Positions 2,458 through 25,463 are shown, counted from the stretch's first letter. The stretch is DNA of 64,000 bases from Candidatus Uhrbacteria bacterium RIFCSPLOWO2_01_FULL_47_25 (GCA_001791325.1 MGEK01000039.1:1175-65174); one strand, 5' to 3'. Translations and numbers: made by a program. The notes: a model not told the origin generated them from the letters alone.

Positions 2458-5202
2458 TCATGCGCCATGACAACGCTTATATTTCTTGCCTGATCCGCAC
2501 GGACAGGGTTCATTGCGGCCTATTTTTTGATGCCGTACGGTTCCACCACCAGACACTTCCTGTCCACCTTCTGGCATATCGGCGTTCATACCCGCTGATC
2601 GCTCGGACATTGTTTTAGCTGGCGCGCTAAATGTTAAATTACGACGCTGCATTGAAGGAGCCATATCCACAGCCACGCTTATTTTATAGATGCTGTAAAC
2701 CACTTGCTTTCTGATAAGATCCAGCAACTCTTGAAACAAACGATAGGCCTCTCGCTTGTATTCCACCAAAGGATCGCGCTGACCGTATCCGCGAAGCCCA
2801 ATCCCCTGCCGCAGATGATCAATAGCTTCCAAATGCTCAATCCAAAGCGTATCAATGGCTCGGAGCATCATGGAGCGCTCAATTGACAAAAAAGCGGCTG
2901 GGTCATTAATTTTGCGCTTAATATTTTCGCGCAAAGCGCCGTAAGCATTTTTAGCGTCATCAATAATTGCCTCAATAAGTTTAGTGCGCTCAACCGCCCC
3001 CAAGGCGCGGTCAGAACCGGCTGAAGATATTTCCTTTAGAGCCGTTTCTGTATTGGCTGAAACCGGATAAATTGTCCGCAAAACTTCAATAATTTCCGGT
3101 ATATTCCAATCGCCGTCCCCTTCTAAATGAGTGTGAAACCCAACAACTTGCTCTATTTCTTGCTCAATCATGCCCAAAATTTCCTCCTCCAAAATATCCG
3201 CTTCGCCATTTTTACTCTCGCTAAATTTTTCTAAAATTCTACGACGCAATCCGTAAACTACTTCCCGATGCTTATTTATTACATCATCGTATTCCACCAA
3301 GTATTTTCTGATATCAAAGTTGTGTCCTTCAACTTTGTGCTGGGCTGATTCAAGGGCTTTAGAAACCATTCTATTCTCAATTGGCATATCTTCTGGCACG
3401 CCCAAGCGCTCCATCATGTTTCTTATGCGCTCGGAGCCAAAAATGCGCATTAAGTCATCGTCTAAAGAAACATAAAACTGCGATGAGCCCGGGTCGCCCT
3501 GTCGGCCGGCGCGACCTCGCAACTGATTATCAATACGCCGCGACTCATGGCGCTCTGTACCAATAACATGAAGACCGCCCAAAGCGACGACTGCTTCATG
3601 GTCTTTTTGCCATTGCTCTTGCGCTGTATGGTCAGCAATGGCCTCACCACCTTCTGAACTTGTCAGAGGCGGCGGCGTACCCCCCAAGATAATGTCCACA
3701 CCGCGACCGGCCATGTTGGTGGCTAAGGTAACCGCGCCTCGACGTCCGGCTTCAGTAATAATCTGCGCTTCACGTTCATGGTTTTTAGCGTTTAAGACTT
3801 CATGCGGAATACCTTCAGTCTCTAAAAGCGCGCTTAATGTTTCATTTTTCTCAATGGAAATAGTGCCAATAAGCACGGGCTGTCCTCGTTCATGCCGCTC
3901 TTTTACTTCACGCATCACCGCCGTGAATTTCCCCATTTCAGTTTTATAAATTCTGTCCGCTAAATCAGCGCGGATCATGGGTTTGTGCGTTGGAATCACC
4001 ACTACTTCTAATTTGTAAATTTTATGGAATTCTTCGGCTTCGGTTTCGGCCGTACCGGTCATGCCCGCTAACTTTTCGTACAATCTGAAATAATTTTGAA
4101 AAGTAATAGTCGCCAAAGTCTGACTCTCACGCTGAATTTCCACGCCTTCTTTTGCCTCAATGGCCTGATGCAGACCCTCTGAATAGCGGCGGCCAAACAT
4201 AAGGCGGCCGGTAAATTCATCAACAATGATAATCTCTCCATCCTTAACCACATAGTCACGGTCTTTTTTGTAAAGAGTTTCCGCTCGCAGGGCCTGCTCA
4301 ATGTGATGAACCGACGAAAGGCCACTAACCGTGTAAATATTTTCAACGCCTAGCCATTTTTCCAACTTGGCGATACCTTCGGCGGTTAATGTCGCCGCGC
4401 GCATTTTTTCATCAATGTTAAAATCAGCTTTCTCCTCCAGCTTTTTTATCAAATCAGCAAACTTGTAATAAAGATCAGTTGATTCTTCAGCAGGCGCGGA
4501 AATAATGAGCGGCGTGCGCGCTTCGTCAATCAAAATACTGTCCACCTCATCAACAATAGCGTAATGCAGTTTGCGCTGAACCATATCTTCCAGCCGCGCC
4601 ACCATATTATCGCGCAAATAGTCAAAACCGAATTCGTTGTTAGTGCCGTAGGTAACATCAGCCGCGTACGCCTCACGACGAGGCACGGGAACTAATGAAC
4701 GTGTTGGATGATCATATCTAAACGCGCTATCGTGCTGAATGCAGCCAACAGTCAAACCAACCGCATCATAAACTGGCCCCATCCATTCAGCGTGAAACTT
4801 AGCCAAGTAATCGTTGACCGTGACCAAATGCGCCCCCTTACCGGTTAAAGCATTCAAATATAGCGGCGCTGTGGCGGTCAAAGTTTTTCCTTCACCAGTT
4901 CTCATCTCGGCAATTTGACCGCGATGCAAAACCGCGCCGCCAATCAACTGCACGTCAAAATGGCGCTGACCCAAAGTGCGTCGCGCCGCTTCACGAATGA
5001 CGGCAAAGGCCTCGGGCAAAAGATCATCTATAGTCTCCCCTTCTTGAAGGCGTTTTTTAAATTCGTGAGTTTTAGCGCGTAATGCTTCGCTGGTTAAGGC
5101 TGTAAACGAAGGCTCAAGCTCGTTAATTCTCTCAATAATTGGCCTAATTGACTCCACGACCTTAGCATTTGGATCACCAAAGATTTTTGTTAAAAATGAC
5201 AT
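2458..5202 (-). CDS. secA: preprotein translocase ATPase SecA
   Basis: 914 aa; DEAD-like motor motifs ([23 protein letters not shown]); C-terminal zinc-binding tail [14 protein letters not shown]. Confidence 0.95.
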
Positions 5203-5261
5203 GTAAGCAACTATAGCGGCTTCTCAATAAAATGTGAAGCACTCCACAAGCTCACCCCTAT

Positions 5262-5396
5262 GGCGTCAGCCATGTCGCGGTTTCGTGAGGCGCCTGCCTG
5301 CCGCAGGCAGGAAACCCCATACCGTCCCGATGGCCATCGGGACCGGTGCGCGAGTGAAGAAGCCCGCGATGTCATGCACCGCGGGCTTCTGTGTAG
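5262..5396. ncRNA. GC-rich structured element, copy 1 (conserved core CAGGAAACCCCAYACCGTCC flanked by covarying hairpins)
   Basis: Intergenic between secA start and the decarboxylase stop. Contains the perfect hairpins GTCCCGATGG/CCATCGGGAC and AGAAGCCCGCG...CGCGGGCTTCT. A second copy with compensatory stem changes lies at 15408-15512. Confidence 0.3.
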
Positions 5397-5417
5397 CGAA
5401 AAAAACCAAGTTAAATC

Positions 5418-6782
5418 TTACCACCCAAACAACTTCCCCACCTCCTCCGGTGTCTCGCGCCGCCGAGCCAGCGTAATATCGCCGTCTTGGACGATAATCT
5501 TGGCCGGTGAGGAAAGTAAACAGTGATGAGAAGCCAGAGCGTCTTGATAAGCTCCGGTATCAAAAATCGCTATGTATTGTTGCTCTCCATCTTCAAGCTC
5601 CTCAAGACGCGGCAAACGAATATATGTGCCCGAGGCCGTGTATTTGTCATCAGAATCGCAGGAACTACCGGTCAGCCAAACCGGTACGAGTTTTTTCGCA
5701 TCCATGTGGTTCACTGGAGCAACGTGCCACTTTTGATGAATCGCCCATGTATCAAGAAGATCATTCATAAAACTGCCGTCAATAATGTACCAAAGTTTTC
5801 TTGATCCATTAGAGACGGGTTTCGCATGGATAATTCTAAAAATAGAAATTTGCGCCGGCGCCACGGCATAACGACCCCACTCTACAATGAGATGGGGCGG
5901 GGGCACGCCGGCACGAGCGGCCATTTTCCCAATCGTCCCGACGATGCCGTTGGCCACGCTCTCAACGCTATAAAGTCTGCGGCTGCCATAGGGCACGGCA
6001 AACCCTCCCCCTAGATCAAGAGTATCAAGGCTGGGATTTGTTTTACGCAACTGGATATAGAGTTCCATCAACTTTTTGGCCGCCCGTACGAGATCACTCC
6101 CTTGTTCAATTTGCGATCCAAGATGATAATGAAGAATTTTTAAATTTCGAATACGCCCTAATTCTAAAATTTCTTCCGGGGATGTTCCGAATTGATCAAA
6201 TTTCTTGTCCCAGTGAGAGCGAACTTTTATATTGATATTAGCGCGGATACCCACATCACCCTTAAAACTTTTGAGCATCGGTATTTCTCCAAGATCTTCA
6301 ATAATGGGTGTAATGTAAACGCCGAGATTCCTAAGTTCGGTTATTAAGTCTATATATTTTGCCACTTTGGGACCATTGCAGATAACCCGAATACGCGCGT
6401 TGAAGTGATTTTGCCCCCACAATTTTTTCAACAGCCAAAGTTCATTATGAGAGGCAACTTCTAAATTTGCTCCCTCGGAAAGAAGCGGAATCACAAATTC
6501 TTTGTTCTGGTTTACCTTCATGGGGTAGTGATAGGAAAACCGACCGCGGTACTTACGGCGCCTCATAGTATTCTGAAAAACCGTAAAAAGATCCTCAACC
6601 TTTTGCTCCAAAATGTGGGGAAAAACAATTTCTAAAGGCGAACCGTATTTTTTGACTAATTCAAAAACGTTATACTGATAGTTACCCTCCTTAACGATAA
6701 GATGGCCATCCCGACTCACATCAAACCACTGCGTATTCAGCTCCGGACGTCCTAATTTCCAAAACTGGCGAACGTTTTTCAC
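5418..6782 (-). CDS. PLP-dependent arginine decarboxylase-like enzyme (SpeA family, short form)
   Basis: The N-terminal region (IVFPHILEQ...YHYPMKVNQNKEFV...ANLEVASHNEL) aligns to the SpeA/Orn-DAP-Arg decarboxylase fold-III pattern. 454 aa is shorter than E. coli SpeA. Confidence 0.6.
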   Translation of the reverse strand: MKNVRQFWKLGRPELNTQWFDVSRDGHLIVKEGNYQYNVFELVKKYGSPLEIVFPHILEQKVEDLFTVFQNTMRRRKYRGRFSYHYPMKVNQNKEFVIPLLSEGANLEVASHNELWLLKKLWGQNHFNARIRVICNGPKVAKYIDLITELRNLGVYITPIIEDLGEIPMLKSFKGDVGIRANINIKVRSHWDKKFDQFGTSPEEILELGRIRNLKILHYHLGSQIEQGSDLVRAAKKLMELYIQLRKTNPSLDTLDLGGGFAVPYGSRRLYSVESVANGIVGTIGKMAARAGVPPPHLIVEWGRYAVAPAQISIFRIIHAKPVSNGSRKLWYIIDGSFMNDLLDTWAIHQKWHVAPVNHMDAKKLVPVWLTGSSCDSDDKYTASGTYIRLPRLEELEDGEQQYIAIFDTGAYQDALASHHCLLSSPAKIIVQDGDITLARRRETPEEVGKLFGW

Positions 6783-7138
6783 GACTGTACCTCCCTTTGC
6801 CGACGGCGCGGACTGACCAACCTAGCTTGGCGAACGCTAATGCTCCGTTTCTCTTTCAGGCCATGTAATTCACGCTTTAATTCGTCTTTAACGGCATCAA
6901 CTGCCGCATAAATATCGGTAGATACAGCCTCGGCTCTAAATAAGTGCTTTGGTCCATGGAGATTGGCTTCGGCACGCCAAACATCGCCCTTATGATGGTG
7001 TTTAGTAGTCCGCTCCAGCTCTACTCTGGCGTGCGTTAAACCGGGAAAAAATTTTGCCAGAGAAAGAATTTTTTGTTCCGCGTACCTCTTTAGGGCTGGA
7101 GTAAGGTCAAGATTCGTTCCTTTGATACTAATAACCAT
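6779..7138 (-). CDS. hpf: ribosome hibernation promoting factor / RaiA (sigma-54 modulation protein family)
   Basis: 119 aa; MVISIKGTNLDLTPALKRYAEQKI...ARVELE is the typical HPF/YfiA N-terminus. Confidence 0.85.
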   Translation of the reverse strand: MVISIKGTNLDLTPALKRYAEQKILSLAKFFPGLTHARVELERTTKHHHKGDVWRAEANLHGPKHLFRAEAVSTDIYAAVDAVKDELKRELHGLKEKRSISVRQARLVSPRRRQREVQS

Positions 7139-7140
7139 AC

Positions 7141-7345
7141 CCCCGCACCTTTACGGCGTTAGCGTTCTTTGGTCAGCCCGCACTAGAGCTAGCGACCACA
7201 AAGAATCAATAGCTGAAACTGTAAGCTTATAACATTCCTGACGAACGCCTGTTACTATACCGGATTGAATTAAATGATAATGATAATTGATCATAAGTTA
7301 AGTTTTGGTTCAGCTGTGGCGTTCGTAACGCCGAAAGGTGCGGGG
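7141..7345 (-). promoter_or_regulatory. long structured 5' leader of hpf (20-bp long-range stem enclosing ~165 nt)
   Basis: CCCCGCACCTTTACGGCGTTA (7141-7161) is a near-perfect reverse complement of TAACGCCGAAAGGTGCGGGG (7326-7345). It sits immediately upstream of the hpf start codon on the coding strand. Confidence 0.3.
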
Positions 7346-7393
7346 CATATTCACAAGAATAATAACATGGTCAAATAAATAAACACAAGAAAA

Positions 7394-8458
7394 TTAGTGG
7401 ATAACTTTGACCCCGGCGAGTTCATCAACCAGGCTCTCAATAAGAGCCATAGCGCTATCATTGCCGGGGTGATGATAGGCCTCCAAGCGTTCTTCAAAAA
7501 CATCAAGATTCCGAAGGAATTCCGCTATACCATCTATCTCTGCCACGCGCAGCATTTTGCCGTAACCTAATCGCTCAAGCTCCAAGGCATTATCAATCTG
7601 CTCAAATTGACCGGCGATCGGTATCGCCAAATATGGCTTTTTTAAAACAAGACTCTCGGAAATTAAGGTAAACCCGCCAGTGCCGATAATCGCCCGACAG
7701 CCCAGAAGATCATCCAAAAATCCTTGCTCGCTAAAAGCACGAAAATCTAAATTACCCTGCCGCCCTATCGCTCCATGGCCGTAAATACGATAAAGCTGAT
7801 TGGTTTTTTGCAATATGACCGGCAAACGTTCGTTCTTAAACGAATCATAAACTAAAATATGCTCGCCGCGATGCGGCCGCGCCCCCAAAATAGACGGCCG
7901 GATAATCGGCGGCACTATATGAACATGACTTTTTTTGACTGGCTCACTGGCCAAAGTGGTAACAACATAATGATCAGCTCGCGGCACAATCAAACGTACG
8001 ACGGCCTTAGACACAAGCCAATCATGGCGATAGCGCCAAGGCACCCTTGAACCACGAAACAACACATGATGAATATTGCCTATGGAAATGATGGGCACGC
8101 CGAAGCGCAGAGCCGTCAGGGCCGTCACCGGCTCAAAGTCAGTGCAAACGACGTCTGGCCGCGTTGTTTGAAAAAGATTGGCCGCCAATTCTAAACTCTT
8201 TACCGCCTCGGGAGCTCTAATTAAATTTCTCCAAATTGTTGACAAATATCGGATCGCGTTATGCTGATAATCAAAATGCAATCCAAAAACTTCGGTGACG
8301 GAAAATTCCTCCCCCAGCAAATCCTTGCCTCGGTCATAGGTTACCACTTGCACTTCATGCCCCTCATTGATTAAATAACGAATTACTTCGCGCGAACGAA
8401 TGGCGTGGCCAGAGCCCTCTCCGGAAACTCCGTAAATAATTTTTATGTTGGCAGACAT
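7394..8458 (-). CDS. glycosyltransferase (GT1/GT28-like, uncharacterised MJ1255-type family)
   Basis: N-terminal G-rich loop YGVSGEGSGHAIRSREV, ~350 aa, two Rossmann-like halves; distinct from the MurG encoded further on. Confidence 0.5.
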   Translation of the reverse strand: MSANIKIIYGVSGEGSGHAIRSREVIRYLINEGHEVQVVTYDRGKDLLGEEFSVTEVFGLHFDYQHNAIRYLSTIWRNLIRAPEAVKSLELAANLFQTTRPDVVCTDFEPVTALTALRFGVPIISIGNIHHVLFRGSRVPWRYRHDWLVSKAVVRLIVPRADHYVVTTLASEPVKKSHVHIVPPIIRPSILGARPHRGEHILVYDSFKNERLPVILQKTNQLYRIYGHGAIGRQGNLDFRAFSEQGFLDDLLGCRAIIGTGGFTLISESLVLKKPYLAIPIAGQFEQIDNALELERLGYGKMLRVAEIDGIAEFLRNLDVFEERLEAYHHPGNDSAMALIESLVDELAGVKVIH

Positions 8459-8468
8459 ATTGCTCCGG

Positions 8469-9122
8469 TCAAATTTTTTTCAAAGTTATCTTATGACGTT
8501 CCAATGTCCCGACGTATTGCCGTAGAGAAACGTCAAATATCTGCAAGCTTATATCAAACGAATTAACCCAAAACGATTTCCCCGCGGTTTTTAGAAGATT
8601 TCTCTTTAGTTCATTAAACTGCCGCCTATCATTAAGCACAGCCAAACCAATGGTAATGTGCGGCTGAAACTGACTTTTAACCATAGGATAACCGTATTTT
8701 TTTACCATTCTAGTCTCCATGGCGGAATAAAGCCCAAGAGACAAGCGCTCGTGATCCACGGAGCGAATAAAACCATTTCTCAAACTATTAGCGGAGCGCA
8801 CAATATCATTATGCAATAAAAACAAATTTTGATTGCCTTTAATCTTCAAAAAATAATAAGGTCGTTCGGCCGTTAATCCTTTTGACGCACTTTCTATGGT
8901 TAGGGCAAAATGGCGCCTTTTCAGCTTTTGCGCGGCACGCAACAAAGCTGGCATATTGCTTCTTGGAAAACGACATAGATATAAAGTAATGTGAGGACTA
9001 AAACGATAACCCGAGAAACTAACAATACCCGCCAACTTTTTAGCGCGCATAATAATTTTAGAAAATTGCGAAGGAACTGATATTTTGATGAATAAGATTA
9101 TTTCTCTGTTAACATGAGGCAT
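8469..9122 (-). CDS. 2H phosphoesterase superfamily protein (LigT-like 2'-5' RNA ligase / cyclic phosphodiesterase)
   Basis: Two H-x-T-x motifs (SPHITLYL and QPHITIGL) at the spacing expected for the 2H fold. Confidence 0.6.
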   Translation of the reverse strand: MPHVNREIILFIKISVPSQFSKIIMRAKKLAGIVSFSGYRFSPHITLYLCRFPRSNMPALLRAAQKLKRRHFALTIESASKGLTAERPYYFLKIKGNQNLFLLHNDIVRSANSLRNGFIRSVDHERLSLGLYSAMETRMVKKYGYPMVKSQFQPHITIGLAVLNDRRQFNELKRNLLKTAGKSFWVNSFDISLQIFDVSLRQYVGTLERHKITLKKI

Positions 9123-9126
9123 AATT

Positions 9127-10251
9127 TTATGACGACTCCTTCAGCAGTTCTCCGACTGTTTTGTTAAAACCGACAAAAACTGGCTCTGGCTCAAGCACCA
9201 CTCCAAAAACATCGCGAACACGTTGACGAATTTGGCCGGCCAAAGCCACAACGTCTGATGCTTTTGCTCCGCCGCGATTGATAATGGCCAGCGTATGATT
9301 GGCGGAGATTCCAACTCGCCCAAACACGTCCCCGCGCTGAAACCCGGCTGATTCAATTAGCCAGGCGGCTGAAAGTTTTACCAATTCGCCGCCCATTGGC
9401 CAGCGCGGCATAACTTTGCTCGGGAACAAACGCGCGGACGCTCGCTGCAGCTCGTCGGACGTATCCCTGGTTACGATTGGATTTACAAAAAATGAACCAA
9501 CACCGCGGCTATTGGGATCGTCCTTATCAATTACCATAGATTTGCGACGGCGTATCGCCAAAACTGTTTGACGAACATCACCAAGCGTCGGTTTAACTAT
9601 GTGCTGTGCGCTTAACTCACGCGCCACATCGTCATATAGCACCGCCCCGTCATTAATACGAGATAAACGAAATATCACTTTCGTAATTAAATACCCTCCA
9701 GTTTTTTTAAAGCGACTCTGGCGATAGCCAAAACCACATTCTTGCCTGGAAAATTGACGCCTTGTGCCGGTCTGACAATCTATCGTTTCAACCGTCTCAA
9801 TAGTGGCAGCCGCCTCCTGACCATAACAGCCAATGTTCTGCACTGGCGCTGCGCCAACAAGCCCGGGCACGCCGCTCAAGCACTCTATCCCCGCGAGCCC
9901 CCTAGCAACAGTGGCTACCACTAAGTCATCCCAGTTAAGTCCGGCTGACGCTTCTACTATTGTATCATCGCTGTTGTGAAAAATGAGTTGACGATTCGTG
10001 TATCTCAAAACCAAACCACGCCAACCGCTATCAGCTACCACTATATTACTGCCGGCGCCCAGAACGAACACGGGCAATTTGCATTGATGCGCGTAACGTA
10101 AAATCTCCGCGGCCTCATCATCCTTATCTGTTTCAATATAATAATCAACTGGTCCGCCAATTCCCAAGGTCGTATGCGGCGCCAATGGCTCATTCTTTTT
10201 GACAAGCGAAACGAATTTTGTCCCGCTAAAAAAATTAACCGCATCTGTCAT
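9127..10251 (-). CDS. murB: UDP-N-acetylenolpyruvoylglucosamine reductase MurB
   Basis: FAD-binding N-terminus (GIGGPVDYYIE...FVLGAGSNIV) and MurB C-terminal domain; adjacent to murC/murG. Confidence 0.85.
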   Translation of the reverse strand: MTDAVNFFSGTKFVSLVKKNEPLAPHTTLGIGGPVDYYIETDKDDEAAEILRYAHQCKLPVFVLGAGSNIVVADSGWRGLVLRYTNRQLIFHNSDDTIVEASAGLNWDDLVVATVARGLAGIECLSGVPGLVGAAPVQNIGCYGQEAAATIETVETIDCQTGTRRQFSRQECGFGYRQSRFKKTGGYLITKVIFRLSRINDGAVLYDDVARELSAQHIVKPTLGDVRQTVLAIRRRKSMVIDKDDPNSRGVGSFFVNPIVTRDTSDELQRASARLFPSKVMPRWPMGGELVKLSAAWLIESAGFQRGDVFGRVGISANHTLAIINRGGAKASDVVALAGQIRQRVRDVFGVVLEPEPVFVGFNKTVGELLKESS

Positions 10252-10254
10252 ACG

Positions 10255-11643
10255 CTAACTCATTATCATCTCCGCCAAGCGCCAAATGTCCCCGGCCCCC
10301 ATCGTCACCACCACATCGCCTTCTTTTAAAACTCCGCGTAAAATGTCGGCCGCTTCTTCAAGCGTACGGACTGGACGAGCTCGAGAGGCTGTTAGTTGAT
10401 TAACGGCCTCGGCTATAATGTTGTTGTCAACTTCACCGCCCTTCTCGCGGGCTGAAGAATATATGGGGGGTAAAATTATTTGATCGGCATGATTCAGCGC
10501 CGCGGCAAAATTTTTTAAAAAAGCGGCTGTGCGGCTAAAAGTATGGGCTTGGAAAACACACCATAAACGGCGTTGAGGATAGCGCGCTCGCAAGGCGGCA
10601 ATGGTCGCGGTAATTTCCGTTGGATGATGAGCATAGTCATCAATGATAATCGCTTTATTAAATTCGCCGCGATACTCCAGGCGCCTGGCCGTGCCGCGAA
10701 AGTTAATAAGCGCCCGAGCAATGGCCTCCAGATTAACGCCAGCCGCGTCAGCCATGGCTATTGCCCCCAGAGCATTAAGAGCATAATGGAAACCGGTCGT
10801 AGGAATATTAAATTCGCCATAAGGATTGCCATTATGAATAACTTTAAAACTAGTGTTCTCCGCTAAAACCACGTCTGTTAAGCGCCAATCGTTGTTTTTG
10901 GCCGTGCCATAAGTTAAAAATTTACCACGGCAAACGGACTGTAACTTTAACCTCAAGGGTTCCTCTCCCCAAGCAATCAAAGTCCCATCTGTTGGGATTT
11001 TAGCGGCAAAGTCAAGAAATACAGTTTGATAGCTTTTAATGTCAGGAAAATAATCTGGATGGTCATAATCAACATTAGTAATAATTAGATGGCGCGGCGC
11101 ATAATATTGAAATTTATTTTGGTATTCATCGGCCTCCAGCACAAACCATGGACTAGAGCCCAAGCGGGCGTTGCCTCCCCAGTCCATAACCGTACTGCCG
11201 ACGATAGCCGTGGGATCCAGTCCGCCCTCTTCAAGCATGCGGGCAAGCATGGCCGTGGTCGTGGTTTTACCATGCGATCCGGCCACGGCAATACTGTGCG
11301 CATACATGGCCAATAAAAATCCAACAACCTCCGGGTAACTCCATTCAGAAATACCCCGCACCTGCACCGCTCGGCGTTCAATATGATCATCCGCGTAGGC
11401 CGTTGAATAAATAACAGCGGCGACTCGGGGACCAATGTTGCCAGCTTCAAATCCGTTAGCGCAGTGGATGTTGAGGCGCTTCAAAACTGAATCCGTCGTA
11501 AACACTTCAGATGTATCTGATCCGGAAATTACGTAACCCTGCCCCTGCAGAATTTCCGCCAGGGCAGTCATAGCCACTCCCTTCAAACCAATCAAATGCA
11601 AATGAGCCGGAGGATCAGGAAATTGTTTGCCGGTTTTAAGCAT
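10255..11643 (-). CDS. murC: UDP-N-acetylmuramate--L-alanine ligase MurC
   Basis: IHLIGLKGVAMTALAEIL N-terminus, Mur ligase P-loop GSHGKTTTT, 462 aa. Confidence 0.9.
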   Translation of the reverse strand: MLKTGKQFPDPPAHLHLIGLKGVAMTALAEILQGQGYVISGSDTSEVFTTDSVLKRLNIHCANGFEAGNIGPRVAAVIYSTAYADDHIERRAVQVRGISEWSYPEVVGFLLAMYAHSIAVAGSHGKTTTTAMLARMLEEGGLDPTAIVGSTVMDWGGNARLGSSPWFVLEADEYQNKFQYYAPRHLIITNVDYDHPDYFPDIKSYQTVFLDFAAKIPTDGTLIAWGEEPLRLKLQSVCRGKFLTYGTAKNNDWRLTDVVLAENTSFKVIHNGNPYGEFNIPTTGFHYALNALGAIAMADAAGVNLEAIARALINFRGTARRLEYRGEFNKAIIIDDYAHHPTEITATIAALRARYPQRRLWCVFQAHTFSRTAAFLKNFAAALNHADQIILPPIYSSAREKGGEVDNNIIAEAVNQLTASRARPVRTLEEAADILRGVLKEGDVVVTMGAGDIWRLAEMIMS

Positions 11644-11646
11644 ATT

Positions 11647-12702
11647 CTAATTTATGAAAATCGTTTCCAGATGTTCTAAGAATTGTTTAGACCCGTCAGC
11701 AATCAATTCATGAAGGGCGCGCCCGTAATGTTCCCTAATTGCTTGGTTATTGACGAGATTGAGTACTTCTTGCGCAAATTTATTTGCCGTCAAATTTATT
11801 TGCTCCAAAACTATGGCGGCTCCTCGTTGGGCTATGGCTTGGGCGTTTGCTTCCTGGTGTGAATCAGGGATTGGTATAACGATAGCGGCTTTGCCAAGAC
11901 AGGCAAGTTCTGAAATAGTGCCCATGCCGGCGCGACTAACCACCACTTCGGCGGCGGCATAGAAATCCGGCAGTTCTGCCCTGGCAAATGCTTGTTGATG
12001 ATAATAGATTGACGGCTGTACACTAATTTGTTTGCCCGCTCCGGTCAAATGAATTAATAAAACTCTTTCTGCTAAAAATGGCAGGGCCTCAATAATCAGC
12101 CGATTCAAAGCCAGAGCGCCAGTGCCGCCGCCCATAACGAGTACTAACGACAAATCAGAACCAGTCTGAAAATGCCGTCGGGCGGCCAAGGGGTTTCCGT
12201 TCAGCACTGACGGACGAACAAGATTTCCAATAACTACGGAGTTTTTATCATGACCTGGCCAAACACTTGTTTTTAAAGAGGCAAAGGGACTCATTAATTT
12301 GTTGGCCAGTCCGCGCTCTACATCCTGCTCGTGCACTGTTACCGGTATCCTCAAGCACCACGAGGCCCAAACAAGAGGTACGCTGACAAATCCGCCCGCT
12401 GTTAACACGGCGTCGGGATGCAATTTTTGCAATAACCAAATAGACTTCAAAAATCCAGCCGCCACTAAAAATGGCGCGGCCACATTGCGCCAATCCCAAT
12501 AACGACGCCACTTGCCGGCCGGCAAAATAAAAAAAATAATCCCATAATTTTCAACCATGTGCCGCTCCGGCCCATGGGCCGTGCCAGCCCAAAAAAATTC
12601 ATACGACAATTTTTTTAAGCGCGCCTGTTCTACTATTGCCAAAAGCGGCGTCACTGAACCGCCTGTTCCACCACCAGACAAAAGGAGTTTTCGTTTTTTC
12701 AT
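11647..12702 (-). CDS. murG: undecaprenyldiphospho-muramoylpentapeptide beta-N-acetylglucosaminyltransferase MurG
   Basis: LLSGGGTGGSVTPLLAI G-loop, GT28 N- and C-domains, 351 aa. Confidence 0.9.
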   Translation of the reverse strand: MKKRKLLLSGGGTGGSVTPLLAIVEQARLKKLSYEFFWAGTAHGPERHMVENYGIIFFILPAGKWRRYWDWRNVAAPFLVAAGFLKSIWLLQKLHPDAVLTAGGFVSVPLVWASWCLRIPVTVHEQDVERGLANKLMSPFASLKTSVWPGHDKNSVVIGNLVRPSVLNGNPLAARRHFQTGSDLSLVLVMGGGTGALALNRLIIEALPFLAERVLLIHLTGAGKQISVQPSIYYHQQAFARAELPDFYAAAEVVVSRAGMGTISELACLGKAAIVIPIPDSHQEANAQAIAQRGAAIVLEQINLTANKFAQEVLNLVNNQAIREHYGRALHELIADGSKQFLEHLETIFIN

Positions 12703-13802
12703 ATATCGCGCCGTCGAGTTGAGATATTAGCTAAGATGCCGGCGGCGGCCAATAAAACAACCATGGAAGAACTGCCATAGCTAAGAAAAGGTAAAGTAAT
12801 CCCGGTCAACGGCAAAAGGCCAACCATAGCTGAAACATTCACCAGAGACTGCCCTGTAATCCATAAAATAATGCCGCCGCCCAAAAGACGGCCAAAATCG
12901 TCAGGCGCCAAACGAGACACCTTAAAACCGTGAAACAAAAAATAAAGAAGTAAGGCTAGCCACAACGCTACCACGATAAATCCGAGTTCTTCGGCCACCA
13001 CCGCAAAAATTGAATCTCCATACACTTCGGGAAGATACTGAAACTTAGCGCGTGACTGCCCAAAGCCGCGACCAAAAAGGCCTCCGGAACCAATCGCCAA
13101 ATAAGCCTGATTAATGTGGTACCCGATTCCTTTTGGGTCAAGTTCTGGATGTAAAAAAATTTTAAAACGATCGGCGGCGTGAGGTTTAAATTGGATAAGG
13201 AGCATAAAAACAACCATGCCGATCAACACCAATGAAAATAAATATGCCAAACGACCGCCCGCTAAAAAATAAACACCCGAGGCAATAAGAGCGATCATAA
13301 AGGCCGTGCCAATATCTGGTTCAATAATAATTAAACCGGCCACCACCGCGATAATCGCTGTTAAAGGCAAAAATGTGAGCTTAAAATCATTGATTCTCCG
13401 TCCGCGCTTAGTTAACCACACTGAAAGATAAATCAACATGCTTAACTTAACTATTTCGCTGGGCTGAAAGGTAATGGGGCCAAGACGCACCCAACGCCTG
13501 GCGAATGTACCATACGACTGACCGATGTTCGGAATAAAAACAAGCAATAGCAACAAAAGAGACGCAATAAATAAAGGGAGGGCGAAACGCTTGAGATGCC
13601 TATAATCAAACCGTAGGAAGAAGATGAATAACAACAAGCCTATCCCCGTGGCTATTAGTTGGCGCTTCAAAAAATAATAACTATCTCCAAAACGATCAAA
13701 GCCAACTACCGCGCTGGCTGACGACAACATCACCAGCCCAAAAATTAAGAGCACGCCCAAAACGGCCAACAATCTGTAATCTGGATTCTGACGCGCCTTC
13801 AT
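12699..13802 (-). CDS. ftsW: peptidoglycan glycosyltransferase FtsW/RodA (SEDS family)
   Basis: Polytopic membrane protein with SEDS-family motifs, lying between murG and mraY. Confidence 0.85.
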   Translation of the reverse strand: MKARQNPDYRLLAVLGVLLIFGLVMLSSASAVVGFDRFGDSYYFLKRQLIATGIGLLLFIFFLRFDYRHLKRFALPLFIASLLLLLLVFIPNIGQSYGTFARRWVRLGPITFQPSEIVKLSMLIYLSVWLTKRGRRINDFKLTFLPLTAIIAVVAGLIIIEPDIGTAFMIALIASGVYFLAGGRLAYLFSLVLIGMVVFMLLIQFKPHAADRFKIFLHPELDPKGIGYHINQAYLAIGSGGLFGRGFGQSRAKFQYLPEVYGDSIFAVVAEELGFIVVALWLALLLYFLFHGFKVSRLAPDDFGRLLGGGIILWITGQSLVNVSAMVGLLPLTGITLPFLSYGSSSMVVLLAAAGILANISTRRRDI

Positions 13803-14854
13803 GTTATAAGACGATCAATCAGAAAAATAGCTAGTCCCAACATAACCATCACCCCGCTTATCACCCAAAAACGCATCACCACCTTAGGCTCCGGCCAACC
13901 GCTGGCTTCCAAATGATGATGAAGAGGGGCTGATAAAAATATCTTGCGCCCCAAAATTCTTTTAGCGCTGACTTGAAGAATCACAGACAGAGACTCAACA
14001 ACCAAAAGGAATCCAAAAATCGGCAAAAGCAAAGCAGTATTGGTGAGCATGGCCAATATCCCCAAAGTAACTCCTAGCGCCATGGCTCCGGTATCCCCCA
14101 TAAAAAAACGAGCCGGGTAAATATTAAACCAAAGAAAGGCTAAAAGGGAGCCGATAATTACCGCTGTTAAGGCCGCCAAATCAAAACGATGCAGAACAAA
14201 AGCAATAACGCTGTAAGCCCCCATAATAATCAAACTAACGCCGCCCGCTAAACCATCCAACCCGTCAATCAAATTGAGTGAATGGGCAGTTGAGATTATG
14301 ACCAGCAAAAAAAGCGGAATATACCACCAACCAATTATGATATCCCCAAATAATGGAACATGAATTGTATCCCAATCAAGTTTGAAATAGAACCACCACG
14401 CGCCAACGGCGGCAATGACCGCGTATAAAATCATCCTATGTCTTACTCTAAGGCCGCCGGTCTTGGCCCCTACTCCCCAAACATTCATCAAATCATCAAC
14501 CAGCCCAACAAGAGCGGCTGCCACCAGAGCGAAAAGTGGCAACCATGTCTCTGATCTAGATAAAAAATTCAATGTCCCAAAGATATTCGGTGCTAAATAA
14601 CCCAAAAACCAAAAGAACAAAGTTACTGATAATGTAGTTAACCATATCAACACCCCTCCCATGGTAGGAGTGCCACTTTTAGCGGCATGAAGAGTTGAAT
14701 ACACCGGTGTCTCTCCAGTATCGCGGATATTCTTGCCGAGGTTGTACTTATAAAGAAAAAAAGTAAGCACTGGAGTCCAAGCCATGGCCAGCGCAAACGC
14801 CAGAATGGCCAAAAAAAGCATTCGCAAAATTGCAAAAATAGCAACCGACTCCAT
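13799..14854 (-). CDS. mraY: phospho-N-acetylmuramoyl-pentapeptide transferase MraY
   Basis: 351-aa polytopic membrane protein with DDxxN-type motif (VDDLMNVWG) and the HHHLE-like segment typical of MraY. Confidence 0.9.
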   Translation of the reverse strand: MESVAIFAILRMLFLAILAFALAMAWTPVLTFFLYKYNLGKNIRDTGETPVYSTLHAAKSGTPTMGGVLIWLTTLSVTLFFWFLGYLAPNIFGTLNFLSRSETWLPLFALVAAALVGLVDDLMNVWGVGAKTGGLRVRHRMILYAVIAAVGAWWFYFKLDWDTIHVPLFGDIIIGWWYIPLFLLVIISTAHSLNLIDGLDGLAGGVSLIIMGAYSVIAFVLHRFDLAALTAVIIGSLLAFLWFNIYPARFFMGDTGAMALGVTLGILAMLTNTALLLPIFGFLLVVESLSVILQVSAKRILGRKIFLSAPLHHHLEASGWPEPKVVMRFWVISGVMVMLGLAIFLIDRLIT

Positions 14855-14857
14855 AAC

Positions 14858-15220
14858 TTAACGGTTAAGGTAAACCAGTAGTGAGGTCGCAACAATAACT
14901 ACAAACGATAAAATTACTGTACCAAAGCCCAATAGATAACTAATGACCCTATCTCGCCTCCACACAAAACTACCAACAACCGCATTCAAAATAACAAGAA
15001 TTAAACCCGCCAGGGGAATAAATAAAACCTCGTACCAATTGCCTAATAAATCTATGCCGAAATAAATATTGTAATGAAGAACGAGGTTTTCTTCACGAGG
15101 CATTATAAAGACAATAAGACCGACTGCCAACAAACACAAAATAAGAGCGGGAATGAGGGTCGCTCGCGTCCATGTATCTTTGAAATAAAGGCGAATGGCC
15201 GGGGACAAGAGAATTCTCAT
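14858..15220 (-). CDS. hypothetical small membrane protein
   Basis: Four predicted hydrophobic segments; no recognisable family. Confidence 0.35.
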   Translation of the reverse strand: MRILLSPAIRLYFKDTWTRATLIPALILCLLAVGLIVFIMPREENLVLHYNIYFGIDLLGNWYEVLFIPLAGLILVILNAVVGSFVWRRDRVISYLLGFGTVILSFVVIVATSLLVYLNR

Positions 15221-15407
15221 AAGTTATAGCCCCATCATAGCACAACCTACAATCAAGATGAATCCCGCGCCATGCTGGCCGGCAGGTAACGGATATACGC
15301 AACAATATCAACCTTCTATGTTCTCAACTCCCCACCAAGAATCAAAAAGCGCATTGTTATGCAACCAGTCGCGAATATCTTCCCAATATTGTGAAGCTCC
15401 ACGGCTT

Positions 15408-15512
15408 AACCCGCCTTGGGCGGATGGCCTCCACAGAGATTGGGGGTGGAGCGTCCGCCCGAGGCGGACAGGAAACCCCACACCGTCCGCCCTGGGTGGA
15501 CTGGTGCGTGGG
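15408..15512. ncRNA. GC-rich structured element, copy 2 (same core CAGGAAACCCCACACCGTCC as copy 1)
   Basis: Shares the ~20-nt core and flanks (GAGCGYC...YGGTGCGYG) with 5262-5396. The intervening hairpins differ but stay self-complementary (GTCCGCCCGAGGCGGAC; GTCCGCCCTGGGTGGAC). It overlaps the 3' half of ORF 15357..15704, which is therefore probably not a genuine full-length CDS. Confidence 0.3.
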
Positions 15513-15753
15513 CAATTCAGTAATGCTGCCTTTTTCTCGTGATTTTTCAATAATCTCTAAATCATCTCGAGCATATTTAGTTAGCTTGCGAAAAATTTTT
15601 TTATTACCCTTAATCTTTTCAAAAATTCCTCTAATTTGATTCACCCACTCGGGCAATCGCTCTCCGCTCGGCATTTCCCCTTCTGGCAATTTTCCGACAG
15701 ACATAAATCAATTACCCCGCCCCAAGGGGCAGGGAAAGAAATTTACATGCATA

Positions 15754-16014
15754 TCATGATTCAAGCGCGGCAATCAAACTTTTTGCGGTTTTGTGAGTAG
15801 TATAGTTACCTAAAGCATAATCAAGCCGCGCTTCATTGATGATTTCATCAAACGTTTCGGCTTCATTTACACGTCTGATGTCGTCTGTAGAAATCTCCAA
15901 TATAATCTTCTTTTCACGAGGATACCGAGAAAGATAGCGCAAAGCAGACAATGGTAAGTTTATCGTTGCCTCGTGGGTTCTTTTTGAATTAGCCTTACTT
16001 ATTTTGGTTCTCAT
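15754..16014 (-). CDS. hypothetical protein (terminal cassette-like ORF)
   Basis: 86-aa ORF at the distal end of the repeat-punctuated island; no family recognised. Confidence 0.35.
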   Translation of the reverse strand: MRTKISKANSKRTHEATINLPLSALRYLSRYPREKKIILEISTDDIRRVNEAETFDEIINEARLDYALGNYTTHKTAKSLIAALES

Positions 16015-16089
16015 ATCGAGAGTGCTTATAAAAATATCATGGCACGAAAGAAAAATTCAAGCAAATTTGGACGATGGTCTGTAAGAGCC

Positions 16090-16270
16090 AAGTCAGGTAC
16101 ACGCTGTTATGCGAAGTAGGTTACGGGATAAATTAATTAAAAATCGCCTAACGGCTCGCGGCTATGCGGAGTCCTGAAGGAATTGTATCACAATTCCTGA
16201 GGGATTACGTATACACACGCTGTTATATGATGTAATGAAAAATTCTTAATTCGCCGATAGGCGAATTATT
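16090..16270. repeat. attC-like modular palindromic repeat, copy A (short form)
   Basis: CACGCTGTTATGCGAAGTA ... CGCCTAACGGCTCGCGG-hairpin-CGTATACACACGCTGTTATATGATGTA, followed by the hairpin ATTCGCCGATAGGCGAAT. Confidence 0.6.
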
Positions 16271-17393
16271 TAATCGGGGCAATTTTTTTAAATTTTTTCA
16301 AAATTTCTCTTTCGAATTCGTCAATACCAAAAATCTTCTCAAATTCTTTTATAGTTTCTATGAGTTTCCCGTGCGGAAAAATGCCTTGCAGAAGTGGTTT
16401 ATTTTTAACTCGTGCTATCATTTCATCAGTTGGTTGCCAGTCGATTTTTGCCTTATCAAATAACTTTTTAAATTGATAACATTCTTGCTTCATTACCAAT
16501 AATTTTAACTTCTCAAAATTCATTTTGCGAATTTGTTTATAGATTTCGGTAGCTTTTATTGAAAATTCATCAACAAGGTTGTTTATTTCGTCTATTTTGA
16601 GAAATTCTCCATCGGCCCGTACAGCAAATTTTTTCATACCTGCCACAGGACTTTGTCCTTTAGAAATTGTATGACAGCCGACAAAGGATATTTTCCATAA
16701 AACATTTTCATAAATCGCGTAAATAACAACCTCTTTTACGTTTGCCAACAACTTTTCCGTCCATAATTCTTTCGGTCGGAGATTGGGGAAATGCCGGATT
16801 AATAGTACTTGATTAGATTTTAATGTGTATGGACCATAAACATCCCAACCGAGGTCAGTTACTACATCATTATAAAGCCCATGGACAAGCGAGCCAGCGG
16901 CCGTTATGAGCTGTCCAATTTTGCGAGCGCTTTGAATATCGGCTTTGTTCCATTTTATGTGAGATATGAACGTGCCAATTTCGGAGTTTGTATGACGTGG
17001 ATTCGATTTCAATGCGAAAGGATCGTCTGGACAACTTTCCTTGAGCATACGTGCGAAAAAATTTGCTACTGATTTATAATCCTTTTTATTCTCCGTTGGC
17101 TTAGCGTGGTAGGAAGGAATAAGTTTTATGAGAATTGCCCGCAGGTTAGAGGGTGGCGGGAGTATTCCTTTAATTTCACTAAAATGTTTTGATTCCAAAT
17201 CTAATTTTTTGATTGCATGCGCAATACTTGCTACCCATAAATCATACCAAAGAGGAAAAAAATGATAAAAATCAAGTGGTTGAAATCCCTCTAACACCTG
17301 CCCTTTAAAAACGTTTGAAGCGGATTTTGAAAATTCTTTAATCCAAGACATATACTTTTCCTTTTTGGCCGTCAACGCGGATGCGCATGCCAT
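16266..17393 (-). CDS. hypothetical protein (cassette ORF; 3' gene of a three-gene unit)
   Basis: 375 aa, no recognised family; its probable start (MSWIKEF) overlaps the upstream gene by a few nt. Confidence 0.45.
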   Translation of the reverse strand: MACASALTAKKEKYMSWIKEFSKSASNVFKGQVLEGFQPLDFYHFFPLWYDLWVASIAHAIKKLDLESKHFSEIKGILPPPSNLRAILIKLIPSYHAKPTENKKDYKSVANFFARMLKESCPDDPFALKSNPRHTNSEIGTFISHIKWNKADIQSARKIGQLITAAGSLVHGLYNDVVTDLGWDVYGPYTLKSNQVLLIRHFPNLRPKELWTEKLLANVKEVVIYAIYENVLWKISFVGCHTISKGQSPVAGMKKFAVRADGEFLKIDEINNLVDEFSIKATEIYKQIRKMNFEKLKLLVMKQECYQFKKLFDKAKIDWQPTDEMIARVKNKPLLQGIFPHGKLIETIKEFEKIFGIDEFEREILKKFKKIAPIK

Positions 17394-17667
17394 TTTTTAT
17401 CTTTTGGGTTGCTTCTTTGGTGTTGACAACGCAGGGAATACCCATCTCCCTGCTTAAAATAGCAGGATGTGAAGTGATGCCGCCAATATCCGTGATAATT
17501 GCCGCTGCCCTTACCATTGCGGTCACCATCGTCGGATCGGTTATCGTGGTTACTAAAATATTTCCCTCTTCAAATGAAGAAGGGTCGTCGCCAGAATAAA
17601 ATAATCTGGCGGTGCCTTCTATGTTTCCCGGGCTTGCGCCCATGCCTGTGAGTAATATTTTAGCCAT
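17338..17667 (-). CDS. stand-alone PEP-utilising enzyme mobile (swivelling phosphohistidine) domain protein
   Basis: GGITSHPAILSREMGIPCVV is the phosphohistidine swivel-domain signature of PEP synthase, PPDK and rifampin-phosphotransferase-type enzymes. Only 109 aa. Confidence 0.7.
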   Translation of the reverse strand: MAKILLTGMGASPGNIEGTARLFYSGDDPSSFEEGNILVTTITDPTMVTAMVRAAAIITDIGGITSHPAILSREMGIPCVVNTKEATQKIKNGMRIRVDGQKGKVYVLD

Positions 17668-17669
17668 AG

Positions 17670-18626
17670 TTATTGTAGTGAGTCGACTTTTTTAGGTTTT
17701 ATGTTGTTGGCTTTAATATACTCTTTTGCCAACTCAGTTAATGCGGGGATGTTCAGTTTGTATTCCTGTGTTTCTCCATTTTCACGTCGCAATATAATTG
17801 TAACTTGTTTTTCTCCTTGGTTATCGTTTTGTATCCGCAAATCCCAACTATCAAGTATTTTTAAACTCCCGCCAATTTCTTCCAAATTTTCAAAACCTAC
17901 TACGCTTTCTTTATTTTTTTCTCTTTCTATAGCATATTTCAGAAATGCTTCGGTTGATGTTTTGTGTCCCGAGCTAACCAGATTAATTGATTTACCGCCT
18001 GGCATATAATCTGGCAAATGGACAAGGCGATTAATCTTGAAAGCGACAGAAGCGGCTTGCTCCCGCGGACTCGGCGTTTCTTCATCTGGTCGCTTGTCGC
18101 CAAAAGAAAGATACCACTCTAAAGCTGGCTCTTCTGCATATTCTGCGGCTGCTTCCTGTTCATCGGGCGGTAGTTCATCAAATTTTTTTCCCGAATAATG
18201 CTCGTCGATGTATTGTTGTCTTTTTGGTAACATGATTGCATCGTACTGCTGCATAAATTTTTTGCTTGCGGCTAAGGCAGGCAGAGAAAAAAATGCCTGC
18301 GTAGTTTCTGACCTTTGTAAAATATTGGGGTTAACTTCTGCGGCTTGAAATACAGAAGTTAGTGTTTCTTTGGTTCTGTCTATTGCGGTAGCGTATGCCT
18401 TAGTAATTTTGCGACCAGCTAGTTGACTTTTTCCATAAGTTTCTGCGCGTTGTTTTCCTGTTTCTGAAATGCTTGACGTCGATAGTCCTTGAATTCCTTC
18501 CGCAAAGACTTGCCCAGACGCTTTTTGCGAATGGCGGACAAAAGTAAATCTTATTTCTGTATTATGCCCTCGTTCTTCTTTTAGTTCTTCAGGTTGTTCA
18601 ATTTGTGGTCTTCGTTCGTTAATCAT
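17670..18626 (-). CDS. hypothetical protein, possibly histidine-phosphatase (PGAM-like) superfamily
   Basis: The N-terminal RHSQ motif (FTFVRHSQKA...LSETGKQRAE) and a later SSGHKTSTEA segment resemble the RHG...H catalytic motifs of branch-1 histidine phosphatases; the similarity is weak. Confidence 0.4.
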   Translation of the reverse strand: MINERRPQIEQPEELKEERGHNTEIRFTFVRHSQKASGQVFAEGIQGLSTSSISETGKQRAETYGKSQLAGRKITKAYATAIDRTKETLTSVFQAAEVNPNILQRSETTQAFFSLPALAASKKFMQQYDAIMLPKRQQYIDEHYSGKKFDELPPDEQEAAAEYAEEPALEWYLSFGDKRPDEETPSPREQAASVAFKINRLVHLPDYMPGGKSINLVSSGHKTSTEAFLKYAIEREKNKESVVGFENLEEIGGSLKILDSWDLRIQNDNQGEKQVTIILRRENGETQEYKLNIPALTELAKEYIKANNIKPKKVDSLQ

Positions 18627-18659
18627 ATTGGTTGGTAAAAAATTTAAAAAAATTGCCCC

Positions 18660-19040
18660 GATTAATTTGCCCGATAGGGCAAAAAAAAATTTTCATTATT
18701 TCACATAACGGCTCGCGGCTATGCGGAGTCCTGAAGGAATTGTATCACAATTCCTGAGGGATTACGTATAGCCGCTGTTCGGCGATGTGCGCCGCGCGCA
18801 CGCCTGCCCGCCGAAGTATGGGGTGTTTGAATTCAGCATCTTAGTGAATAAGGAACGAAGGCGGGAGCCGAACAGCGGGAACCGCGAGCCGTTAGGCAAA
18901 ATGCGCGGCGCATTTTGCCTAACGTTCGCGTATATCTGATGTTTTGCGGAGCGTAGCGGAGCAAAATATGGGTGAGTATTTGGCGTTAGCCAAGCGCGAA
19001 CCAGATATACGCTGTTATATGATGTATGCTTTTCTTTTTG
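18660..19040. repeat. attC-like modular palindromic repeat, copy B (long form)
   Basis: TTGCCCGATAGGGCAA hairpin, then ACATAACGGCTCGCGG...GCTGTTCGGCGATGTGCGCCGCGCGCAC...GCCGAACAGCGGGAACCGCGAGCCGTTAGGCAAAATGCGCGGCGCATTTTGCCTAACGTTCGCGTATATCTGATGTTTTGCG...CAAAATATGGGTG...CCAGATATACGCTGTTATATGATGTA. Confidence 0.65.
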
Positions 19041-19145
19041 TCTCGCCTCAACGAGACCACTTTTCTATAATGAACAAATTTTATTTTTGTCTTGGCGTAG
19101 GGGCAGAGGGGCTGGGGGTGAATGCCACGAAGCCAAGACACCTTA

Positions 19146-20294: not shown

Positions 20295-20401
20295 AGTTTG
20301 TTTACATCTTTAGTTAATGTATACAAAGTATATCAGTTTGTATATTTTATGTCAAGTAAAGTTTACAAACTGCGAGGTGAATACCCCGAAGCCAAGACAC
20401 C

Positions 20402-21451: not shown

Positions 21452-21458
21452 AGGTTTG

Positions 21459-22268: not shown

Positions 22269-22384
22269 ATTTTTGAGTTAGTAATATTTATAAAATCGTT
22301 TTCTGAGCGACGAGAGGAGCGAAGAAAACACCATATACCCCCCTCTTAAAAAATAAAAATAAAATTTATTCATTATAGAAAAGT

Positions 22385-22580
22385 GTTAGGCGTTAGCCGT
22401 AAAAAGAAAAGCATATTTCGTATAACGTTTAAGTGTATGCGAAGTTGAAAAACCCCGCTGCCTTGATTTAATTGTATCAAAAAAAGCGGGGTTTTTCAAC
22501 TTGGGTGAAAGACATGGCACAATTCTTTAGTTACATTAAAAAGTGTGCCAGTCCTAAACCGCATACACTTTGTTAGGCGA
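22385..22580. repeat. attC-like repeat, diverged copy H
   Basis: GTGTTAGGCGTTAGCC ... CGTATAACGTT-GTGTATGCGAAGT-[16-bp perfect stem AGTTGAAAAACCCCGC/GCGGGGTTTTTCAACT]-TGGGTGAAAG ... CCGCATACACTTTGTTAGGCGATGTA. Confidence 0.5.
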
Positions 22581-22626
22581 TGTAAAAACAAGTTCTTTCC
22601 TTAATTCGGGAATAAGGAAAATTATA

Positions 22627-22884: not shown

Positions 22885-22974
22885 AGGTTTGTATGATTAA
22901 AATTTATAAGTGTCTTTTGTATAAATAGCTTAATATAATTTTCGTTAAAATTCAATAGAACTTGTTTTTATTTC

Positions 22975-23330: not shown

Positions 23331-23336
23331 TTTTAT

Positions 23337-24110: not shown

Positions 24111-24177
24111 TGAGATAAAAAATGAGAGTTGGGCGAGAGGGTTGGGTTTCCTCTCGCGCCCGTGAGCTGATTGTACA

Positions 24178-24411: not shown

Positions 24412-24439
24412 CTCTCATTTTTTATCAATATCAATGGAC

Positions 24440-24745: not shown

Positions 24746-24793
24746 ATTCTTAACTCCGACCGAAGAGAGGAGTTATGGAAATCAGGGTAATTT

Positions 24794-25460: not shown

Positions 25461-25463
25461 CAT

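Follow-up and report, generated by a model that had tools for sequence, protein, structure and literature searches.

Several kinds of small bacterial mobile DNA without genes of their own have been described. Those derived from the insertion sequences (IS) IS200/IS605, the palindrome-associated transposable elements, have asymmetric ends and subterminal hairpins, while the repetitive extragenic palindromes (REP) and their doublets (REPIN) go with a REP-associated tyrosine transposase (RAYT). Miniature inverted-repeat transposable elements (MITEs) mobilised by DDE transposases are defined by terminal inverted repeats and target-site duplications. Rickettsia palindromic elements (RPEs) sit in frame and are translated with the host protein, and integron attC sites are single bulged hairpins. 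Here we describe a structured GC-rich repeat in 64,000 nt of Candidatus Uhrbacteria bacterium RIFCSPLOWO2_01_FULL_47_25 (GCA_001791325.1, MGEK01000039.1:1175-65174), and the whole of this stretch is called the window below. Exact matches of its proteins put it among the Candidatus Uhrbacteria (Parcubacteria) of Rifle-type groundwater, for example GW2011_GWA2_46_9 and GCA_001790975.1. We consider it likely that its copies belong to a small family of non-autonomous, modular, GC-rich and hairpin-rich mobile DNA elements of bacteria of the Candidate Phyla Radiation (CPR).

The element is recognised by a 20-nt core, CAGGAAACCCCAYACCGTCC, which is present exactly twice in the window, both times on the + strand, while none is expected in 100 shuffles of the window, even with 3 mismatches allowed. 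The GC contents of the two copies are 0.66 and 0.69, against 0.447 for the whole window. Both copies have the blocks GTG(A/G)(G/A)GCG and YGGTGCG on either side of the core, and their similarity begins at a conserved GTGAAGC (5234 and 15391) and stops shortly after YGGTGCG. In copy 1, a 5' module (GTGAAGC, the outer helix P1 and an inner hairpin) is followed by a 3' module (hairpin P2, the core, hairpin P3 and GGTGCG). For the family, the 5' module on the + strand consists of GTGAAGC and an outer helix CTCCAC...GTGGAG around variable hairpins, and the 3' module of P2, the invariant unpaired CAGGAAACCCCAYACC, P3 and YGGTGCGYGRG. The full copies therefore have no terminal inverted repeats, the start GTGAAGC and the end GGTGCGYGRG not being complementary. 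An element measures about 120-150 nt, and there is a 61-nt short form besides. We built a covariance model, R1, from three sequences, i.e. the two window copies and an external homologue on contig L003; run with filters off over the whole window, it found the two known copies and no others. The initial annotation of this DNA had described two GC-rich copies with a conserved core and covarying hairpins, which was correct, but it had misplaced their limits: both copies start earlier than it supposed, and copy 1, which it had extended to 5396, ends at 5353, the hairpin at 5359-5389 belonging to the spacer behind a decarboxylase gene.

Hairpins P2 and P3 differ in sequence between the copies, yet they remain paired. 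In the three-sequence alignment 97% of the cells pair and 5 of 24 pairs are changed on both sides; equal covariation was reached in 1 of 500 shuffles, and slid registers fall to 32-45% paired. Folding of the + strand gave z = -4.1 for both copies, and the minus strand folds about equally well. As had been suspected from the beginning, no known RNA family covers the element: Rfam at gathering thresholds gave no match in the whole window, and E-value scans of both copies returned sub-threshold chance matches alone (at most 24 bits, against cut-offs of at least 40).

Copy 1 lies in the spacer between the genes of a pyridoxal phosphate (PLP)-dependent decarboxylase and secA. In L032, from a related member of the Uhrbacteria (MurC 74% identical), this spacer has 87 nt and copy 1 is exactly absent: it reads ...GAAGCCC..GGGCTTCTTCAC joined directly to ATTTTATTAAGAA... 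(right of the junction, ATTTTATTAAGAACTCGCTATAGTTGCTTAC...). With 5234-5353 taken out, the window spacer matches L032 at 45 of 48 positions from the hairpin arm to the start of secA. Judged by this alignment, copy 1 is a precise 120-nt insertion between the post-decarboxylase hairpin and the putative secA promoter. Its junction is ambiguous over 6 nt, since the target already bore GTGAAG, the hexamer that opens every copy; this 6-nt repeat is the element's own conserved end and not a target-site duplication of fixed length. Five bases of the -35 hexamer TTCACA of the predicted secA promoter now come from the element's last bases. The promoter is thus kept despite the insertion, and any effects on secA would be incidental, as the element's end rebuilds the hexamer.

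Copy 2 lies within an open reading frame (ORF) of 115 aa (15357-15704). We ran an exhaustive HMMER search with this ORF as query over 1.84 billion protein representatives, and it turned out that variants from the same species and P0262 were the only matches. P0262 is an intact homologue of 91 aa, 65% identical over residues 1-66, which continues ...ITELQYWEDIRDWLQNNAILDSWWGNINIEE. Its DNA (L038) reads ...ACTGAACTA followed at once by CAATATTGGGAAGAC, where the window reads ...ACTGAATTG, then 121 nt, then CAATATTGGGAAGAT; past the junction both have CAATATTGG. In-silico removal of the 121 nt gives back an ORF of 91 aa, which can be aligned with P0262 over its whole length. Copy 2 is thus a precise insertion inside a 91-aa cassette gene, frameshifting and truncating that gene. 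The junction is ambiguous by 1 nt (15391-15511 or 15392-15512), and as its two sides have one nucleotide at most in common, copy 2 is without a target-site duplication. The 115-aa ORF is a chimera of 64 real codons and 51 codons running through and past the element, and it has been deposited as a hypothetical protein in several public genomes (KKU48185.1, OGL59204.1 and others), a mis-annotation for which the element accounts. The cluster variants P0015, P0016 and P0261 resemble assembly chimeras breaking within the element. The initial annotation had placed both copies in non-coding DNA and taken this ORF for a probable artefact. The former holds for copy 1 and fails for copy 2; as to the latter, the C-terminal half is indeed encoded by the element, but the N-terminal 64 codons are a real conserved gene. 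The coordinates of all features are collected in Table 1.

Table 1. Positions of the element copies, their target sites and other features of the window.
Feature	Position	Strand	Remark
Copy 1, full element	5234..5353	+	120 nt; R1 116 bits, E=7e-32
Core of copy 1, CAGGAAACCCCATACCGTCC	5308..5327	+	predicted unpaired
Target-derived GTGAAG	5354..5359	+	repeats first 6 nt of element; L032 empty site has one GTGAAG
Post-decarboxylase hairpin GAAGCCCGCG...CGCGGGCTTC	5359..5389	-	outside element; kept at L032 empty site
secA promoter-like site TTCACA-17-TATAGT	5210..5238	-	same hexamers at L032 empty site
secA	2458-5202	-	flanks copy 1
PLP-dependent decarboxylase	5418-6782	-	flanks copy 1
Copy 2, full element	15391..15511	+	121 nt; R1 134.6 bits, E=3e-37
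Core of copy 2, CAGGAAACCCCACACCGTCC	15469..15488	+	exact 20-mer match
Interrupted small gene, N-terminal 64 codons (MSVGK...ITEL)	15513..15704	-	65% identical to P0262 residues 1-66
Interrupted small gene, C-terminal 27 codons (QYWEDIRDWLHNNALFDSWWGVENIEG) and stop	15308..15391	-	out of frame; matches P0262 C-terminus QYWEDIRDWLQNNAILDSWWGNINIEE
attC-like hairpins, examples	16139-16232, 18696-18790, 18866-18944, 22957-23077, 24447-24632, 25778-25960
Tyrosine recombinase, Xer/IntI-like, 271 aa	26539-27354	+	just under NCBIfam 'XerA/integron integrase' cut-off
Small IS, 24-nt terminal inverted repeats GGTAATTAGTGTGTTTCGTAACCA / TGGTTACGTTTCGCACTAATTACC	55295-56132
IS1595-family DDE transposase, 262 aa	55339-56127	+	overlaps antisense ORF 55300-56073

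To look for the element elsewhere, we scanned the core against one genome per species and found one clear homologue, at 4149-4298 (150 nt) of L003, upstream of uppS. Its 5' block, outer helix, P2, core, P3 and GGTGCG correspond to those of the window copies, and L003 and the window have nothing in common but the element. With R1 a second copy was detected on L003 at 2887-2947; it has 61 nt, consists of the 5' module alone and is closed by perfect 12-bp terminal inverted repeats, GTGAAGCTCCAC...GTGGAGCTTCAC. At this second site a related strain (L037, UppS 92% identical) carries a different variant, namely the 3'-module end of an element with a changed P3 stem, and its contig stops inside the element. 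Both the short form and this variant stand downstream of genes. Across the two CPR lineages the identity of the 3' module is roughly 77-92%, and the core is identical in the Uhrbacteria and in a lineage resembling the Komeilibacteria, although the hairpins have drifted. The hairpin GTCCGCC-N3-GGCGGAC, of the P2/P3 type, is also found alone after genes, in L036 (1602-1618), L043 (945-961) and L041 (13015-13031), and the family is therefore modular; on its own, the hairpin could be either a unit of REP type or a widespread stem resembling a terminator.

L003 and L036 are CAZQTS010000005.1, which belongs to a metagenome-assembled genome (MAG), GCA_964596475.1, labelled 'uncultured Gammaproteobacteria'. 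The L003 contig is assigned to the CPR on two grounds: the closest relatives of its UppS are proteins of Komeilibacteria, Kerfeldbacteria and Patescibacteria, and its genes stand in the order seen in Komeilibacteria MHKK01000015.1 (L041). It is probably mis-binned or mislabelled. A contig of a soil MAG (L002, 3293-3350) contains the core exactly, the variable position being G, and CTGGTGCGC 36 nt downstream, but lacks the remaining blocks. It was not recovered by R1; this match is therefore treated as unproven and is either a degenerate relic or chance. Two further matches of the core scan (L001 and L004) were rejected as chance. In metagenomes, the pattern CAGGAAACCCCANACC-N(8-38)-GGTGCG gave 19 loci, all coding or chance and without the other blocks. 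Among viral contigs the core scan gave no match and the 5'-block scan gave 2 chance coding matches, and BLAST against plasmids and phages found no element.

Besides, we retrieved the orthologous regions of related Uhrbacteria via MurC homologues (58-80% identity). Neither the core nor an R1 match is present in them. R1 likewise found nothing in L029-L033, in L038-L043 and in the window outside the two copies. Some 150 kb of orthologous or related DNA is without the element. The distribution is patchy, i.e. two CPR lineages and unrelated gene contexts. The precise insertion of both copies, the homologues in unrelated contexts and the absence from orthologous loci bear out the idea of a small structured mobile repeat, one of two interpretations offered by the initial annotation. 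The covariance-model search for further copies which it had proposed led to the second, 61-nt copy on L003. On the whole, its observation is partly confirmed and its interpretation partly supported.

A non-autonomous element of this kind would depend on a transposase acting in trans from another part of the genome. Movement would most likely be by single-strand 'peel and paste' with a Y1/HUH enzyme (IS200/IS605 or REP-RAYT type), which would recognise the subterminal hairpins and insert the element 3' of a short motif like TTNAC in the strand that is sense to the local genes; the hairpins would covary because folding is needed for mobilisation. The lack of duplication, the lack of inverted repeats in the full form and the common orientation of five copies weakly indicate such single-strand transposition in trans. 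The element combines, as expected of the IS200/IS605 or REP/RAYT type, the lack of inverted repeats and duplication with subterminal hairpins. Its orientation relative to local genes is identical in 5 of 5 copies, and the minus strand would be the lagging-strand template for co-directional genes. On this strand the left flanks end in TTCAC, TTGC, TTTAC and TTGAC at four sites, and the right end is always CTTCAC. With one deviant among the four, the flanks hint at a TTNAC-like target, which would explain the 6-nt identity at copy 1.

Several points weigh against this explanation. No Y1/HUH, RAYT or TnpB gene was found in the 64-kb window or 10 kb beyond, and the genes for transposition or recombination there are limited to those of an IS1595-family DDE transposase and an Xer/IntI-like tyrosine recombinase. 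The orientation bias would arise by chance in about 1 of 16 cases, the flank TTGC of copy 2 departs from the proposed target, and both arguments are weak because only four or five copies are known. The single internal G.T wobble favours folding of the + strand, although the proposed active strand is the minus strand, and in the three sequences G.U against A.C pairs did not decide between the strands. The invariant 20-nt unpaired core is not accounted for by plain hairpin recognition. The identity of 6 nt between the target of copy 1 and the element's own end could instead mean an overlap region of a recombinase or a microhomology deletion in L032.

Some of the alternatives involve the surroundings of copy 2, which lies in the last cassette of an integron-like array. 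The array belongs to a 12.2-kb integron-like block (15263-27435) that is absent from the relatives L029-L033, in which the type IV pilus ATPase gene directly adjoins a 120-aa ORF. The 271-aa recombinase of the block aligns with the integron-integrase model in two separate segments that leave out the middle region, and it appears to be without the IntI-specific middle domain. Divergent from it runs the array of small minus-strand ORFs (Fic, methyltransferase, phosphoenolpyruvate-utilising domain, hypotheticals), separated by at least 10 attC-like imperfect bulged hairpins (..CATAAC.. to ..GTTATGC/GTTAGGC..). In L043, the closest relative, the array stands at this junction too, but its last cassette is another one.

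Another possibility is an undescribed kind of duplication-free CPR mobile element whose core would be an active module, either a recombinase site or a catalytic or guide RNA. The recombinase would possibly be the neighbouring Xer-like enzyme without the IntI-specific domain; otherwise a small catalytic or guide RNA might direct insertion. If true, this would explain why the core is identical in the Uhrbacteria and the Komeilibacteria-like lineage despite the drifting hairpins, but we regard it as unlikely.

It is quite unlikely, too, that the neighbouring Xer/IntI-like recombinase acts on the element, be it as an ORF-less cassette or as a substrate of another kind, and inserts it by single-strand exchange at a GTGAAG-like core. 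The position of copy 2 in the last cassette of the array next to the recombinase would suit this explanation, and integron-type insertion is likewise free of duplication. One mismatch separates GTGAAGC from the attC core site R' (GTTRRRY), 6 nt further downstream copy 2 carries GCTTAAC, a fit to the inverse core site R'' (RYYYAAC), and copy 1 and its target have a 6-nt 'overlap', GTGAAG, in common. However, the targets ATATTG^CAATTC and AAAAT^GTGAAG contain no GTT or AAC, and just 1 nt is common to copy 2 and its target. The attC cores of the array (CATAAC...GTTATGC/GTTAGGC) belong to single long bulged hairpins, unlike the element. Besides, copy 1 is 10 kb away from the array, and no recombinase lies beside the L003 copies (11 kb examined). 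The dif/Xer site was tried as well and rejected: GGTGCG resembles the XerC arm of E. coli dif, but there is no partner resembling the XerD arm.

A duplicated gene for a trans-acting small RNA (sRNA) on the + strand, antisense to its neighbours, with the insertions resulting from duplication or horizontal transfer, is very unlikely as the explanation, though the element may encode an sRNA as a secondary property. The good folding and the G.U pairs of the + strand are what such a gene would show, and there are -10-like hexamers just 5' of GTGAAGC and a weak terminator-like stem with a T run after copy 2. Nevertheless, the -10-like sequence of copy 1 exists already at the empty site, no terminator was detected for copy 1, and the minus strand folds about equally well. 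Nor would an sRNA gene be expected within another gene with base-precise junctions, or as a 61-nt short form with inverted repeats.

The other interpretation offered at first was a novel cis-regulatory RNA, that is, a leader or riboswitch on the minus strand in the 5' untranslated region of envelope genes (secA, the mraY operon, uppS). All full copies do lie just upstream of such genes in fixed orientation (secA, the 120-aa ORF with mraY, and uppS), and the conserved structure with compensatory changes and an invariant unpaired core would be in keeping with it. However, the same spacers occur in relatives without the element, including the exactly matching empty site at secA: no element is present at the secA position in L029, L032 and L033, at the position of the 120-aa ORF and mraY in L029-L033 and L043, or at the uppS position in L041 (syntenic Komeilibacteria) and L042. 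The block that had been described downstream of copy 2 is real, the 120-aa ORF being followed by mraY-ftsW-murG-murC-murB on the minus strand, but the end of the integron-like insertion intervenes: copy 2 is within coding sequence and is separated from the 120-aa ORF by 170 nt plus the island junction. Moreover, the short form and one variant are downstream of genes, no Rfam family matches, and the strand that folds better and carries the wobble pairs is antisense to all neighbouring genes. With the element missing in relatives, one copy intragenic, others downstream and the wobble strand antisense, this explanation is untenable, its probability being close to nil.

That the element is ancestral at both sites and was lost from the relatives by microhomology deletion is scarcely credible either: the 6-nt direct repeat GTGAAG around copy 1 would suit slipped-strand deletion, but the repeat at copy 2 is 1 nt only, copy 2 breaks a frame that is intact in the homologue, several relatives are without copy 1, and another lineage has the element in unrelated contexts.

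Two other candidates were rejected. Repeats of a diversity-generating retroelement do not fit, the differences between the copies being compensatory and not adenine-specific, with no reverse transcriptase nearby. The IS1595-family element of the window was rejected as mobiliser because its inverted repeats are unrelated to the element and the family makes 8-bp duplications. Elsewhere in the window, the polysaccharide/glycosyltransferase region contains two pairs of direct repeats, 47577-47653 / 48250-48326 (81% identical) and 60674-60746 / 60776-60848 (74% identical).

CPR bacteria are uncultured and their genomes tiny, and in a brief literature search we found no report of small non-autonomous mobile elements in CPR bacteria. 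The empty and filled sites, precise to the base, open a way to study active DNA mobility in these organisms as well as exchange between CPR lineages. They also call for caution, in that GC-rich covarying intergenic structures should not be taken for riboswitch candidates until empty sites have been checked. In addition, the element may cause assembly breaks, as the L003/L036 and L037 contigs end in or near a copy.

In conclusion, the element represents a new family among the small, non-autonomous, hairpin-based mobile elements, a general kind already known, and it can be compared with each of the systems named at the beginning. It is like integron attC sites and ORF-less cassettes in its folded structure of single-strand type, its duplication-free insertion and its location in a cassette array, but its core sites misfit RYYYAAC/GTTRRRY, its targets are without GTT, and it has three helices and an unpaired core in place of one bulged hairpin. 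RPEs likewise are structured repeats of about 100-150 nt within a protein-coding gene and between genes; they have no sequence similarity to the element, and copy 2, with its 121 nt, frameshifts and truncates its host gene. The element recalls classical MITEs (Correia, ERIC, Nezha) in its size, its lack of coding capacity, its insertion near promoters, to which it can supply hexamers, and, in the short form, its terminal inverted repeats. A classical DDE-mobilised MITE was nevertheless rejected, since full copies lack the terminal inverted repeats and copy 2 the target-site duplication that define this class.

REP/REPIN-RAYT systems are closer. They too consist of short GC-rich palindromic units, mostly between genes, and of doublets forming long hairpins, such as the 61-nt copy of L003; their stems are kept by compensatory changes, they make no target-site duplication, single units occur, as GTCCGCC-N3-GGCGGAC does here, and the copy number is low, as it is for the element. 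The element differs in that no RAYT gene was seen in the window and 10 kb beyond, in its asymmetric full form with an invariant unpaired core of 20 nt, in having one intragenic copy, and in its CPR host, for which a shallow literature search found no REP/RAYT report. With regard to the IS200/IS605-derived non-autonomous elements, no cognate TnpA/TnpB was found in the same sequence, the target motif comes from four sites with one deviant, and the element matches no Rfam model, including the omega-RNAs of TnpB/IscB as far as Rfam covers them. In common with these elements it has asymmetric ends with subterminal hairpins and neither terminal inverted repeats nor duplication; its insertion apparently 3' of a short motif (here TTNAC-like) and a possible strand bias, which would agree with the lagging-strand template as the recipient, may be further points of resemblance.

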